Shown: positions 2,474-8,235 of the stretch, piece after piece
Numbering within the stretch: the first letter of the stretch is position 1
Layout: each line of letters opens with the position of its first letter
From: Escherichia coli
Lineage (GTDB): Bacteria; Pseudomonadota; Gammaproteobacteria; Enterobacterales; Enterobacteriaceae
Assembly: GCF_003334405.1 (NCBI RefSeq)
Contig: NZ_QOWM01000017.1
DNA length: 64,000 nt
Strand: one strand, 5' to 3'
Position numbers and translations under genes: made by a program
The notes under the pieces: model-generated
Told to the model about the DNA's origin: nothing
Databases searched by the model: none
Seen by the model: the letters and a program-made list of their open reading frames with translations, nothing else

Positions 2474-4036
2474 ATGAACTCGTTTTCACTTCTGACAACC
2501 CCGTGGTTGCCCGTTCGTTTTAAAGACGGAACGACAGGCAAACTGGCGCCAGTCGATCTGGCGGATGAAAATGTTGTCGATATTTCTGCGCCGCGGGCAG
2601 ATCTCCAGGGTGCGGTATGGCAGTTTTTGCTGGGGCTACTACAAACCAGCTTCGCGCCAAAAGATCATCGTCGTTGGGATGATATCTGGGAAGACGGACT
2701 GGAAGCTGAAAAGCTACGGGAAGCATTGCAGTCATTAGAACATGCTTTCCAGTTTGGGCCAGATTCCCCTTCATTTATGCAGGATTTCGAGGCGCTCACC
2801 GGAGATAAAGTTCCGGTCGCTTCGCTACTGCCTGAGATTCCCGGCGCTCAAACAACGAAGTTTAATAAAGACCACTTTATCAAGCGTGGTGTAACGGAAT
2901 ACCTGTGCCCACATTGTTCTGCGTTAGCTCTGTTCTCCCTACAGTTGAATGCGCCGTCAGGTGGCAAAGGCTACCGCACCGGTTTACGCGGCGGTGGGCC
3001 GATGACCACTCTGATTGAATTACAGGAATATCAGGGTAATCAACAAACTCCCTTGTGGCGCAAACTGTGGATCAATGTCATGCCGCAGGATGAAGCCGAT
3101 TTACCGCTACCCAAAAAATTTGACGATCTGGTTTTCCCCTGGCTTGGCCCGACGCGCACCAGCGAACTGGCCGGTGCGGTGGTAACCGATGAGCAGGTCA
3201 ATAAACTCCAGGCGTACTGGGGAATGCCTCGCCGTATTCGTATTGATTTTAATACCACGACAGTCGGCAACTGCGATATTTGCGGTGAGCAGAGCGACGC
3301 GCTCCTGAGCCTGATGACGACCAAAAATTACGGTGCGAATTATGCCATGTGGCAGCATCCCTTAACGCCTTACCGTGTACCACTTAAAGAGGGTGGCGAG
3401 TTTTACTCCGTTAAACCACAACCGGGCGGTTTAATCTGGCGTGACTGGTTAGGCCTTATCGAAACGGGTAAATCAGAAAACAATACGGAACTTCCCGCGC
3501 TGGTGGTGAAACTCTTCAATGCCAGCAGTCTCAAGCAGGCAAAAGTGGGCCTGTGGGGATTTGGCTATGATTTCGACAACATGAAAGCGCGCTGTTGGTA
3601 CGAACACCATTTCCCGCTGCTGCTCGATAAAAAAGAAGGTCAGATACCGAAGCTGCGGCTGGCTGCGCAAACAGCTTCACGGATTCTAAGTCTGTTACGG
3701 AGTGCATTGAAAGAAGCATGGTTCTCCGATCCAAAAGGTGCAAGGGGTGATTTTAGTTTTGTGGATATCGACTTCTGGAACAAAACTCAGCATCGCTTTC
3801 TGAGGTTAGTGCGCCAAATTGAAGAAGGTCAGGATGCGGATGAATTACTCAGCAAATGGAATAAGGAAATTTGGTTATTCGCACGTCAGGATTTTGACGA
3901 GCGTGTATTCACCAATCCTTATGAGCCCGTTGATCTGGAACGCGTCATGACCGCGCGCAAGAAATATTTTACAACATCGGCGGAGAAGCAAAGTGCTAAA
4001 GCCGCCAGGGAGAAAAAGCAGGAGGCTGCTGAATGA
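2474..4036 (+). CDS. casA: Cascade large subunit Cse1/CasA (type I-E, non-K-12-like variant)
   Basis: About 520-aa ORF directly after cas3; RBS gagagg before the ATG at 2474; glycine-rich loop KGYRTGLRGGGPMTT resembling the Cse1 loop; position in operon. An alternative in-frame start at 2405 was judged less likely. Confidence 0.8.
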   Translation: MNSFSLLTTPWLPVRFKDGTTGKLAPVDLADENVVDISAPRADLQGAVWQFLLGLLQTSFAPKDHRRWDDIWEDGLEAEKLREALQSLEHAFQFGPDSPSFMQDFEALTGDKVPVASLLPEIPGAQTTKFNKDHFIKRGVTEYLCPHCSALALFSLQLNAPSGGKGYRTGLRGGGPMTTLIELQEYQGNQQTPLWRKLWINVMPQDEADLPLPKKFDDLVFPWLGPTRTSELAGAVVTDEQVNKLQAYWGMPRRIRIDFNTTTVGNCDICGEQSDALLSLMTTKNYGANYAMWQHPLTPYRVPLKEGGEFYSVKPQPGGLIWRDWLGLIETGKSENNTELPALVVKLFNASSLKQAKVGLWGFGYDFDNMKARCWYEHHFPLLLDKKEGQIPKLRLAAQTASRILSLLRSALKEAWFSDPKGARGDFSFVDIDFWNKTQHRFLRLVRQIEEGQDADELLSKWNKEIWLFARQDFDERVFTNPYEPVDLERVMTARKKYFTTSAEKQSAKAAREKKQEAAE

Positions 4037-4569
4037 GTATTGTAAAAGAGGAGCACAAAGCCACGCTGCGCAAATGGCACGAGGAATTGCAGGAGAAACG
4101 TGGCGAACGTGCCAGTCTGCGGCGTAGTACGACGGTTAATGATGTTTGTCTGACGGATGGATTTCGCCTGTTTCTGAAGAACAGACAAATAAAGTGGCAG
4201 GATGAACCTGAGTGGCGTATCACCGCACTGGCGCTGATAGCCGCAGTTAGCGCCAATGTTAAAGCTATTGATGAACGGCAGCCTTTTGCCGCGCAGCTGG
4301 CGGCGGTAATGTCAAAGGGGCGTTTTACTCGTCTGTCGGCAGTAAAAACACCGGATGAATTACTGCGCCAGTTACGCCGCGCAGTCAGATTATTAAACGG
4401 TTCCGTCAATCTTGACTCTCTGGCAGAGGGGGTCTTCCGTTGGTGCCAGGAGAGCGACGACCTGCTCAATCATCACCGCCGCCAGCAGCGGCCAACCGAA
4501 TTTATCCGTATCCGCTGGGCGCTGGAATATTACCAGGCTGGCGACGCCGATAACGAACAAAATCAATAA
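4033..4569 (+). CDS. casB: Cascade small subunit Cse2/CasB
   Basis: 178-aa basic, helical ORF; start overlaps the casA stop (ATGA coupling); position in operon. Confidence 0.8.
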   Translation: MSIVKEEHKATLRKWHEELQEKRGERASLRRSTTVNDVCLTDGFRLFLKNRQIKWQDEPEWRITALALIAAVSANVKAIDERQPFAAQLAAVMSKGRFTRLSAVKTPDELLRQLRRAVRLLNGSVNLDSLAEGVFRWCQESDDLLNHHRRQQRPTEFIRIRWALEYYQAGDADNEQNQ

Positions 4570-4580
4570 AGGACTATCTC

Positions 4581-6393: not shown

Positions 6394-7025
6394 CCTTACA
6401 TACCGGCCAGCTTTCGCCTGCGCAGTTGCTGCATCTGGTGGATCGCGGTGAATATGTGATGCATCAGTGGTTGTGGGATCTCTTCCCTGGCGGCAAAGAA
6501 AGGCAATTTCTTTATCGTCGGGAAGAACTCCAGGGCGCGTTTCGCTTTTTTGTCCTCTCGCAGGAACGCCCGGCGGAAAGTGAAACTTTCACCATCGAAT
6601 GCCGGTCATTTACGCCCGAGCTGAGTACCGGACAACAACTTTGTTTCAACCTGCGGGCGAATCCAACAATCTGTAAAGCGGGCAAGCGCCACGATCTGCT
6701 GATGGAGGCGAAACGGCAGGTGAGGGGACAGGCGGAAGGAAGTGATGTCTGGTTGCATCAACAACAGGCGGCGCTGGACTGGCTGGCAGCGCAGGGGGAA
6801 AGAAGTGGTTTTACACTACTGGATACCTCGGTTGATGCCTACCGACAACAACAACTCCGGCGGGAAAACTCCTGGCAACTGATCCAGTTCAGTAGTGTGG
6901 ATTATACGGGGATGCTTACGGTCACCGATCCTGGGTTATTTCTGCAACGTCTCAGTCAGGGGTATGGCAAAAGCCGGGCGTTCGGTTGTGGTCTGATGCT
7001 GATCAAACCTGGAGCAGAGGCGTGA
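6375..7025 (+). CDS. casE: Cas6e/CasE pre-crRNA endoribonuclease
   Basis: 216-aa ORF starting at ATG 6375 with RBS AGGAGG (6365-6370); C-terminal glycine-rich motif GKSRAFGCGLMLI typical of Cas6e. Confidence 0.85.
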   Translation: MYLSRITLHTGQLSPAQLLHLVDRGEYVMHQWLWDLFPGGKERQFLYRREELQGAFRFFVLSQERPAESETFTIECRSFTPELSTGQQLCFNLRANPTICKAGKRHDLLMEAKRQVRGQAEGSDVWLHQQQAALDWLAAQGERSGFTLLDTSVDAYRQQQLRRENSWQLIQFSSVDYTGMLTVTDPGLFLQRLSQGYGKSRAFGCGLMLIKPGAEA

Positions 7026-7945
7026 CGTTTGTACCGCTGAGCCCGATCCCGTTAAAAGATCGCACCTCCATGATCTTCCTCCAGTACGGTCAAATCGACG
7101 TACTGGACGGCGCTTTCGTGCTGATCGACAAAACCGGGATCCGCACGCACATTCCGGTGGGATCGGTCGCCTGCATTATGCTCGAACCGGGAACGAGAGT
7201 TTCCCACGCGGCGGTGCATCTGGCCGCCACGGTGGGGACGCTACTGGTCTGGGTCGGTGAAGCGGGTGTTCGCGTCTACTCTTCCGGACAACCCGGTGGG
7301 GCGCGTGCTGATAAGTTACTCTACCAGGCAAAGCTGGCTTTAACGGAAGATCTACGCCTGAAGGTGGTGCGCAAAATGTATGAATTACGTTTTCGTGAGC
7401 CACCGCCAGCTCGCCGTTCAGTGGAGCAGTTACGGGGAATTGAGGGATCCCGCGTTCGCCAGACGTATGCATTACTGGCGAAACAATATGGTGTGAAATG
7501 GAATGGTCGCAAATACGATCCTAAAGACTGGGAAAAAGGCGATGTTGTCAATCGTTGCATCAGTGCTGCCACATCATGCCTGTACGGTATTTCTGAAGCT
7601 GCAGTATTAGCTGCGGGATATGCGCCCGCTATTGGTTTTATCCATAGCGGCAAACCGCTTTCATTTGTTTATGACATAGCCGATATCATTAAATTTGATT
7701 TGGTTGTGCCAAAGGCATTTGAAATAGCAGCGAGGCAACCCGCAGAACCAGATAAAGAAGTCAGGTTGGCCTGTCGCGATATTTTCCGTAGTAGTAAATT
7801 AACGGGCAAGTTAATTCCGTTAATTGAGGAAGTGCTTGCCGCTGGTGAAATTGAACCACCACAACCCGCGCCGGATATGTTACCGCCTGCCATCCCTGAA
7901 CCTGAAACCTTAGGCGATAGCGGTCATCGAGGACGCGGCGGATGA
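7022..7945 (+). CDS. cas1: Cas1 integrase
   Basis: GTG start overlapping the casE stop; residues colinear with the E. coli Cas1 catalytic positions (about Y22, R84, E141 in RGIEGSR, H208, D221); about 307 aa. Confidence 0.9.
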
Positions 7946-8235
7946 GTATGATCGTAGTTGTAACGGAAAATGTTCCTCCACGTTTACGTGGACGGCTCGC
8001 TATCTGGCTACTGGAAGTGCGTGCCGGTGTGTATGTCGGAGATACATCCAAACGTATTCGGGAGATGATCTGGCAGCAAATCTCTCAACTGGCAGGTTGC
8101 GGAAATGTAGTGATGGCTTGGGCGACCAATACCGAGTCAGGTTTTGAATTTCAGACCTGGGGTGAAAATAGACGTATTCCGGTGGATTTGGATGGGTTGC
8201 GTTTGGTTTCTTTTCTTCCTGTTGATAATCAATAA
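7942..8235 (+). CDS. cas2: Cas2
   Basis: 97-aa [37 protein letters not shown]; start overlaps the cas1 stop. Confidence 0.9.

Follow-up and report, generated by a model that had tools for sequence, protein, structure and literature searches.

In Escherichia coli, the CRISPR-Cas cassette of type I-E exists in two variants, cas-E1 and cas-E2, a dichotomy published in 2014 by Almendros et al. (PMC3903273) and attributed to replacement of the whole set of genes, with each cas-E variant having its own leader. Whole-locus replacement through the flanks or the CRISPR array has also been proposed (PMC2886076). The cas genes of cas-E1 group with those of E. albertii and Salmonella, apart from those of K-12 and E. 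fergusonii, and the published mean GC content of E1 is above that of E2 (53.5% versus 45.6%). The terminal spacer with its degenerate repeat was named the 'anchor' (Almendros 2014, PMC3903273). A table published in 2025 (PMC12736100), in which the E1 form appears as 'var. B-8552', gives for the same contrast 73% nucleotide and 84% amino acid identity for cas1, 75% and 86% for cas2, and 29-32% for cas3/5/6/7. On a broader scale, swaps between adaptation and effector modules are a general and tallied phenomenon, the criterion for an inter-module swap being Cas1 identity above 90% combined with effector identity below 50% (Koonin and Makarova 2019, PMC6452270; Makarova et al. 2025, PMC12669027).

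The DNA analyzed here, a stretch of 64,000 nucleotides from E. coli (RefSeq assembly GCF_003334405.1, contig NZ_QOWM01000017.1; referred to as the window), contains a complete type I-E locus at 259-9397, arranged as cas3-casABCDE-cas1-cas2-leader-array between IS421/cysH and iap. The signature order cas3-cse1-cse2-cas7e-cas5e-cas6e-cas1e-cas2e is the same as in annotated E. coli loci, the open reading frames are co-oriented, and all eight Cas proteins exceed the cut-offs of the NCBIfam type I-E models. The plus strand carries cas3 (259-2376), which lies outside the interval discussed in an earlier sequence-only reading of this DNA, followed by casA/cse1 (2474-4036; TIGR02547, 610 bits), casB/cse2 (4033-4569; TIGR02548, 99 bits), casC/cas7e (4581-5636; TIGR01869, 445 bits), casD/cas5e (5647-6393; TIGR01868, 160 bits) and casE/cas6e (6375-7025; TIGR01907, 289 bits), whose product begins MYLSRITLHTGQLSPAQLL; all six are of the E1 type. 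The casE stop codon overlaps the start of cas1e (7022-7945; TIGR03638, 381 bits), and cas2e follows (7942-8235; TIGR01873, 132 bits), both belonging to the E1 clade. Directly downstream of an AT-rich E1-type leader of 96 nt (8236-8331, plus strand), which can be aligned only in part to the 105-nt K-12 leader, the array (8332-9336, plus strand; TRF rows) comprises 17 palindromic repeats of 29 nt and 16 spacers of 32 nt. It ends in the terminal spacer GGCGCACTGGATGCGATGATGGATATCACTTG and a degenerate last repeat (9337-9397, plus strand), both common to K-12 with one mismatch. The conserved flank gene iap (9419-10456, minus strand) is 98.4% identical to that of K-12 at the nucleotide level and 99.1% at the amino acid level. 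Upstream of cas3, the end of an IS421 (IS4-like) element occupies approximately positions 1-100 of the minus strand, with the transposase start codon at position 20 and the gene reading leftwards out of the window. Positions 1-2254 are 99.9% identical to positions 3001-5255 of the NZ_CP047277 locus, whose annotation places the IS421 transposase CDS at 1908-3020 of the minus strand, and CasA is 100% identical to the WP_001084112-type CasA of that locus. Strain N18-04097 has 15 of the 16 spacers, in the same order; separately, positions 13357-63357 of the window are 99.984% identical to E. coli N18-04097, and a Shigella origin was rejected on this ground.

These features identify the locus as the usual cas-E1 cassette, the common, majority form in E. 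coli, which resembles that of Salmonella and E. albertii; for this window the finding is a previously described feature. With the published cas-E1 (CRISPR2.1/CRISPR-I) locus it shares the cysH...iap site, the gene order, the grouping with E. albertii and Salmonella, a leader of its own, the GTG repeats, the terminal spacer and degenerate repeat common to K-12, an IS element beside cas3, and the gene lengths from casA to cas2 (1563, 537, 1056, 747, 651, 924 and 294 bp, in agreement with the tabulated values). The window Cas proteins are 85-98% identical to those of E. albertii and 69-96% to those of S. enterica subsp. diarizonae, which served as the Salmonella reference instead of LT2. For Cas1 the values are 98% and 96%, respectively, and for CasC and Cas3 the identity to Salmonella is 85% and 70%. 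In agreement with the published means, GC content is about 50-54% in most genes (range 46.6-54.5%, against 43.5-51.3% in K-12), each effector gene being 4-9 points higher in the window.

The sole difference seen from published cas-E1 loci is an in-frame deletion in cas3. When it is aligned to the intact cas3 of NZ_CP047277, the gene has one gap of 582 bases, located after window position 2248 and with a GAG microhomology, so that Cas3 has 705 residues instead of 899. Residues 664-857 of the intact protein (194 codons) are gone, and with them helicase motif VI (QRAGRLQR) and the greater part of the C-terminal domain; the NCBIfam cas3_core match ends at profile position 312 of 358. Interference needs an intact Cas3 helicase-nuclease, which this product is not, although the HD domain and the helicase core are still there. 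Because Cas3 lacks motif VI and the C-terminal domain, interference and priming have probably been lost; the locus should retain crRNA processing and could still acquire spacers. The defect bears on function and leaves the type I-E classification unchanged. Among the matches listed from 5426 complete E. coli genomes, none spanned the deletion junction continuously at full identity, and the best matches all consisted of two pieces separated by 582 bp. The deletion thus seems to be confined to this strain, although a continuous match with one mismatch could have escaped the ranking.

The experimentally used K-12 cassette, cas-E2, is of the same subtype as the window locus, with which it also shares the order of the genes, the site in the chromosome, and identical array end and flanks; its repeat differs by one base. 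Its leader differs, and its Cas3 and Cascade proteins are only 21-37% identical to those of the window. By gene, identity to K-12 MG1655 is 28-31% for Cas3, 21-24% for CasA, about 30% (27-31%) for CasC, 34-37% for CasD and 27-31% for CasE; CasB gave no tblastn match to K-12 CasB at E≤1e-3. The sequence-only reading had noted that Cas3, CasA and CasE depart strongly from K-12 and that the repeat begins with GTG and not with the K-12 GAG, and both observations hold (17 of 17 window repeats start with GTG, 12 of 13 K-12 repeats with GAG); the reported dichotomy of E. coli I-E variants, to which it referred, is indeed that of cas-E1 and cas-E2 (PMC3903273; PMC12736100). It had also described Cas1 and Cas2 as nearly identical to the K-12 proteins, which proved to be an overstatement: they are 85% and 86% identical, and their genes 71-73% (cas1) and 73% (cas2) identical in nucleotide sequence, with pS 0.85 and pN 0.12 for cas1 and pS 0.75 for cas2. 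The synonymous sites of cas1-cas2 are as saturated against K-12 as those of the effector genes, and third-position identity is 33-48%. The flanking genes iap, cysD and cysN have dS values of 0.05-0.12 and 97-99% nucleotide identity to K-12, a level of near identity that the cas1-cas2 DNA does not approach. The adaptation genes of the window are therefore not K-12 alleles.

To locate the changes in identity along the locus, we used protein-guided codon alignments. A plain nucleotide sliding window was uninformative because little beyond cas1-cas2 and the array aligns (nucleotide BLAST adds one 80-nt stretch of cas3). The codon-aware profile has three tiers: 34-58% in cas3-casE, 67-75% in cas1-cas2 and 96-100% from position 9308 onwards. 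In windows of 20 residues, protein identity rises sharply at cas1 codon 1, from 15-50% to 75-100%. The sliding-identity analysis, proposed as a check for a breakpoint in the cas region, thus did reveal a change at casE|cas1, but cas1-cas2 stayed well below the identity reached from 9308 on. GC and GC3 values of individual genes distinguish E1 from E2 without marking a clear break inside either of them (K-12 GC3 at casE|cas1 is 43 versus 36-42).

The protein step had been read as a hint of a recombination breakpoint near casE/cas1, that is, of a recent E. coli recombinant in which K-12 (E2) alleles of cas1-cas2 were joined to E1 effector genes. Only the sharpness of the step speaks for such an event, which we regard as extremely improbable and consider refuted by the divergence of cas1-cas2 from K-12, the E1 leader and repeats, and the absence of a visible hybrid class among 5426 complete genomes. 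The window Cas1 and Cas2 proteins are 100% identical to those of other E1 strains, the two Cas1 proteins belong to separate clades (see below), and identity to K-12 returns only from 9308. No change of variant type occurs inside the operon, where everything from cas3 to cas2, as well as the leader and all repeats, is of the E1 type. When the 5426 complete E. coli genomes were queried with the junctions, the E1 junction was present in 2660 and the E2 junction in 1217; the casE|cas1 junction was continuous and of a single type in 2650 of the former and 1177 of the latter, and E1/E2 hybrids did not emerge as a class. In 1996 genomes, 80% or more of window positions 1-10500 was present. What stands of the earlier proposal is the step at cas1 codon 1, which we attribute below in part to probable old module swaps; a crossover at the level of E. 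coli does not.

Because their synonymous sites are saturated, as opposed to the low dS of the flanks, cas1-cas2 lie within the block that was replaced. On its right side, this block is bounded at the E. coli level by the array end that faces iap. A single base sets the array tails of the window and K-12 apart, and K-12 identity is regained only with the last repeat at 9308. Since the terminal spacer and degenerate repeat are common to K-12, the replaced block ends by 9337-9397, and since the K-12 repeat beside the terminal spacer, the last regular one, is already of the GTG type, the actual boundary lies deeper in the array, by one or two repeat units. The left cassette boundary is outside the window. 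E1 and E2 are alternative occupants of one cysH-iap site, exchanged via the conserved flank and the array end, with no crossover within the operon. Taken as a whole, an E1 cassette with whole-cassette replacement in E. coli, older module swaps at casE|cas1 and a Cas3 defect is an explanation in which we have considerable confidence.

The step at casE|cas1 could also reflect nothing but rate, the two cassettes having diverged as wholes from one ancestor with Cas1-Cas2 evolving more slowly and no exchange ever having occurred at this junction. Cas1 and Cas2 are indeed the slowest genes, as the E1-Salmonella identities of Cas1, CasC and Cas3 given above illustrate, and dN against K-12 is 0.13 in cas1 and 0.72-0.87 in casC-E. 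Compared with 80 I-E loci from GTDB species representatives, among them loci of Pectobacterium, Marinomonas, Methylophaga and Bordetella, the window Cas1 shows 75-87% identity, and the 85% to K-12 is thus an ordinary value for this protein. However, within one effector family a Cas1 identity of 83-87% goes with a CasC identity of 53-77% (median 60) and never with less than 53%, whereas here CasC is 27-31% identical. Rate alone therefore does not account for the step. Furthermore, K-12 Cas1 is 91-95% identical to that of seven loci whose CasC is only 29-30% identical to K-12 CasC, but just 86% identical to that of Citrobacter amalonaticus, whose CasC is 75% identical. A difference in rate as the only cause is thus disfavored and, in our judgement, improbable.

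We compared neighbor-joining trees of Cas1+Cas2 (adaptation) and CasC+D+E (effector) for 48 I-E loci with 100 bootstraps; they were built with a simple distance correction from tblastn HSP sequences, drawn from at most 80 loci with one genome per species. The effectors form two old families with bootstrap 100, A (window) and B (K-12), about 25-37% identical to each other. The K-12 block falls into family B with those of C. amalonaticus, Erwinia endophytica and Marinomonas rhodophyticola. The repeat sequence, like Cas1-Cas2, tracks the host genus and not the effector family, its consensus going with host and Cas1 clade. The family B core is monophyletic in 100 of 100 effector bootstraps and in none of 100 adaptation bootstraps, a conflict that also speaks against rate as the only cause. 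Five groupings show the reverse: K-12 with UBA5654, C. portucalensis and Raoultella (89 in the adaptation tree), an Oceanospirillum pair (100), a Marinomonas pair (100), a Methylophaga pair (81) and C. amalonaticus with Citrobacter 18056 (94), each with a bootstrap of 0 in the effector tree. K-12 Cas1 is thereby grouped with Cas1 of loci having window-type effectors. The window, placed by its Cas1+Cas2 in a clade with E. albertii, Salmonella and Klebsiella, belongs to an E1 clade recovered in both trees (95 adaptation, 100 effector), so its own cassette is internally congruent. Eleven cross-family pairs combine Cas1 identity of at least 91% with CasC identity of 28-30%; without exception, the jump coincides with cas1 codon 1. 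As pS in cross-family pairs from the same genus is 0.59-0.81, near saturation, the swaps are undatable and their signal resides only in amino acid changes.

The K-12-like appearance of Cas1-Cas2 has two reasons. One is very strong purifying selection, which holds the proteins at 75-87% throughout the Gammaproteobacteria despite the saturation of synonymous sites. The other, suggested by the trees, would be old and repeated swaps of the cas3-casE block against the cas1-cas2-repeat block exactly at casE|cas1. They are visible for K-12 and for four further pairs at the genus level; the cassette of the window shows none. Convergence driven by the host or a bias in composition may contribute to the grouping of Cas1 by host, but would hardly yield 91-95% identity when the background is 76-80%. 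We lean, with some reserve, towards a model in which the I-E cas1-cas2-leader-repeat unit is a slowly evolving, host-tracking platform onto which effector families A and B, both reading the same repeat, were swapped at least five times, always at the casE stop/cas1 start. K-12 would then be a chimera of a family B effector block and Cas1-Cas2 of a clade otherwise found with family A effectors (Raoultella, Citrobacter, Pluralibacter). Escape from anti-CRISPR proteins aimed at Cascade/Cas3 would be a natural, though speculative, driver.

In these I-E loci, Cas1 proteins above 90% identity go with effectors below 50%, as in the published definition of module shuffling, but here the swaps lie within one subtype, with two effector families on the same repeat, in at least five host lineages and with the junction mapped to the casE stop/cas1 start; a limited literature search found no description of this pattern within I-E. 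The wider value of the result is that the I-E adaptation module with its repeat and the effector module have separate histories meeting at a precise junction. If confirmed by proper phylogenetics, this would be a clean example of module exchange within a subtype and would provide natural chimeras for studying Cas1-Cas2/Cascade compatibility in priming. In addition, because in most E. coli strains Cascade and Cas3 share no more than about 30% identity with their counterparts in the K-12 model, results obtained with K-12 may not transfer to them, a point already made by Almendros et al. (PMC3903273). As a side observation, in two I-E loci (L039 and L056) an open reading frame lies between casE and cas1 that has no NCBIfam match and matches Pfam KilA-N, and a KilA-N gene is conserved at the casE|cas1 junction in many marine loci.

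When its ORFs were listed and compared with annotated genomes, the window proved to contain an entire type I-E locus, encoded on the + strand and consisting of cas3 (259-2376), casA (2474-4036), casB (4033-4569), casC (4581-5636), casD (5647-6393), casE (6375-7025), cas1 (7022-7945) and cas2 (7942-8235). All eight Cas proteins passed the NCBIfam I-E models. A 96-nt leader on the same strand separates cas2 from the CRISPR array (8332-9336, + strand; 17 repeats, 16 spacers), which is followed by a terminal spacer and degenerate repeat (9337-9397), by iap on the minus strand, and then by cysD and cysN. 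The window opens within an IS421 (IS4-like) element (1-~100) that lies just upstream of cas3, as in the closest genomes. About 150-240 bp separate it from the start of cas3. This arrangement is common to related strains with the cas-E1 variant of the cassette (E1, the window type) and could influence the cas3 promoter. Since the region 13357-63357 is collinear with the closely related E. coli strain N18-04097 at 99.984% identity, the source is an ordinary E. coli chromosome. We also noted that the reading frame of rpoS (19486-20478) is cut short at codon 217, where GAG has become TAG (20134-20136; ...LRLN*RITSV...). The rpoS gene of N18-04097 lacks 1 bp at a position 17 bp upstream instead and is annotated as frameshifted; rpoS was inactivated independently in these two very closely related strains.

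The proteins were compared one by one with those of the K-12 MG1655 locus (L001). The strong divergence of the effectors expected from the sequence-only reading was borne out: amino acid identity was 28-31% for Cas3, 21-24% for CasA, about 30% (also given as 27-31%) for CasC, 34-37% for CasD and 27-31% for CasE, and CasB gave no tblastn match to K-12. The difference in the start of the repeat was also correctly read, with GTG in 17/17 window repeats and GAG in 12 of 13 K-12 repeats. Cas1 and Cas2, however, are not "nearly identical" to the K-12 proteins, as had been proposed. They share 85% and 86% of amino acids, respectively, their genes are 71-73% identical in nucleotides, and synonymous differences are saturated (Nei-Gojobori proportion 0.85 for cas1 and 0.75 for cas2). 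For iap, cysD and cysN, nucleotide identity to K-12 is 97-99% and dS is 0.05-0.12.

A codon-aware sliding comparison of the window with K-12 resolved three tiers: 34-58% identity, effectively unalignable, across cas3-casE; 67-75% across cas1-cas2, with 33-48% at third codon positions; and 96-100% from the last repeat (9308) on. Where the array ends, the window and K-12 have the terminal spacer and degenerate repeat in common with 1 base different, and the iap-proximal regular repeat of the K-12 array (L001, reverse-complement 14272-14300) starts with GTG, the other 12 with GAG. The boundary between E1 and the K-12 type (cas-E2, E2) therefore lies inside the array, and the replaced block extends from upstream of cas3, beyond the window, to the last array repeats. 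Both cas1-cas2 and the leader are part of this block, in agreement with published accounts. E1 was described as the majority variant, similar to those of Salmonella and E. albertii, and E2 as that of K-12 and a few others; both are wholesale replacements that have leaders of their own and a terminal "anchor" repeat in common (Almendros et al. 2014, PMC3903273). Replacement of the whole locus via flanking sequence or the CRISPR array was also argued for by Touchon and Rocha (2010, PMC2886076), the reason being that homologous recombination is precluded by the divergence of the cas genes. The identity table of a 2025 survey (PMC12736100) is practically equal to ours. The window cassette is an already known feature.

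The alternative is a recent recombination breakpoint near the casE/cas1 junction. Of 5426 complete E. coli genomes, 2660 have the E1 casE|cas1 junction, 2650 of them as a single continuous match, and 1217 have the K-12 junction (continuous in 1177); the few partial matches among those listed had the appearance of truncations. As no E1/E2 hybrid class was visible in these junction queries, and with cas1-cas2 inside the replaced block, a recent breakpoint was rejected. Overall, the sequence-only observation is borne out in part, and its interpretation has partial support.

What, then, underlies the sharp step in identity at casE|cas1? We listed 80 I-E loci from GTDB species representatives, fetched by Cas1 alignment, and scored each of their Cas proteins against the window and K-12 sets. 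The window Cas1 is 75-87% identical to Cas1 of Pectobacterium, Dickeya, Marinomonas, Methylophaga, Halopseudomonas and even Bordetella; hence 85% to K-12 is a background level, and slow Cas1 evolution is part of the reason for the step. Within one effector family, however, Cas1 identity of 83-87% is accompanied by CasC identity of 53-77% (median 60), versus 27-31% between the window and K-12, which indicates that a rate difference alone is insufficient.

Neighbor-joining trees (48 loci, 100 bootstraps) were built for Cas1+Cas2 and for CasC+D+E; they are distance-based, with input derived from HSPs and one genome per species among the 80 loci listed. The effector tree contained two old families (support 100). 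Family A includes the window, Salmonella, Klebsiella, Pectobacterium, Raoultella and others. The members of family B are K-12, C. amalonaticus, Erwinia endophytica, Pantoea GD03673, Marinomonas rhodophyticola, Oceanospirillum linum, Methylophaga lonarensis and Cycloclasticus. This family was monophyletic in 0/100 bootstraps of the Cas1+Cas2 tree, where the sequences grouped by host: K-12 with Enterobacteriaceae UBA5654, C. portucalensis and Raoultella (support 89), O. linum with O. maris (100), the two Marinomonas loci (100), the two Methylophaga loci (81) and C. amalonaticus with Citrobacter 18056 (94), each with effector support of 0. The E1 clade of the window type and its relatives was congruent between the trees (95 for Cas1+Cas2, 100 for effectors); the discordance therefore lies in K-12 and other lineages, not in the window. 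Eleven cross-family pairs had Cas1 identity of at least 91% yet CasC identity of 28-30%, and in every one the identity jumped at the first cas1 codons. Synonymous sites are near saturation in cross-family pairs too, so the signal is in amino acid changes only; the proposed module exchanges are old. The repeat consensus, too, goes with the host and with the Cas1 clade rather than with the effector family; the exact GTG repeat of the window occurs in three of the four Enterobacterales family B loci, the exception being K-12, whose GAG repeat is a lineage peculiarity. Shuffling of adaptation and effector modules is an established general idea (reviewed in PMC6452270), and a 2025 classification paper (PMC12669027) tallies such mismatches as inter-module swaps, with Cas1 in one 90% cluster and effectors in different 50% clusters. 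The sole addition of some interest here is this deeper history of I-E modules, in which the discordant combination is the K-12 model cassette and not that of the window.

At the casE/cas1 junction itself, 12 of 81 I-E loci carry a conserved KilA-N-domain gene directly upstream of cas1, full length in L039 (9172-9990), L049, L056, L064, L067, L072, L073 and L081 and as remnants in L050, L052, L055 and L082. These loci are mostly from marine gammaproteobacteria. The full-length copies, which accompany both effector families, share 75-79% identity between genera. Other insertions, of 150-4500 bp, occupy this junction in ten further loci.

Cascade, Cas1 and Cas2 of the window look intact. Compared with an intact E1 cas3, the window gene has an in-frame 582-bp deletion (junction after 2248, with GAG microhomology). 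The encoded protein lacks residues 664-857 of the intact 899, and with them helicase motif VI (QRAGRLQR) and the greater part of the C-terminal domain; judging from the sequence, interference and priming are probably lost. Among the 5426 complete E. coli genomes, none was found to have the deletion junction as an uninterrupted identical match. The window array and that of N18-04097 (11914-12918 of its locus in NZ_CP047277) have 15 spacers in common in the same order, and each lacks one internal spacer of the other (window spacer 13 and N18-04097 spacer 3). At the leader end the two are alike; the arrays therefore differ through internal loss and not acquisition, a pattern that fits a silent system.

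The Cas proteins of Pseudocitrobacter vendiensis share 86-98% identity with the E1 set of E. coli, those of Salmonella and Citrobacter being much less close, which suggests a recent transfer of the cassette between genera. In two MAGs, labelled Bacillota (L004) and Collinsella (L080), cas genes with 94-100% identity to the E1 cassette of E. coli lie on short contigs; mis-binning of E. coli DNA is the most likely explanation, rather than transfer to Gram-positive hosts.
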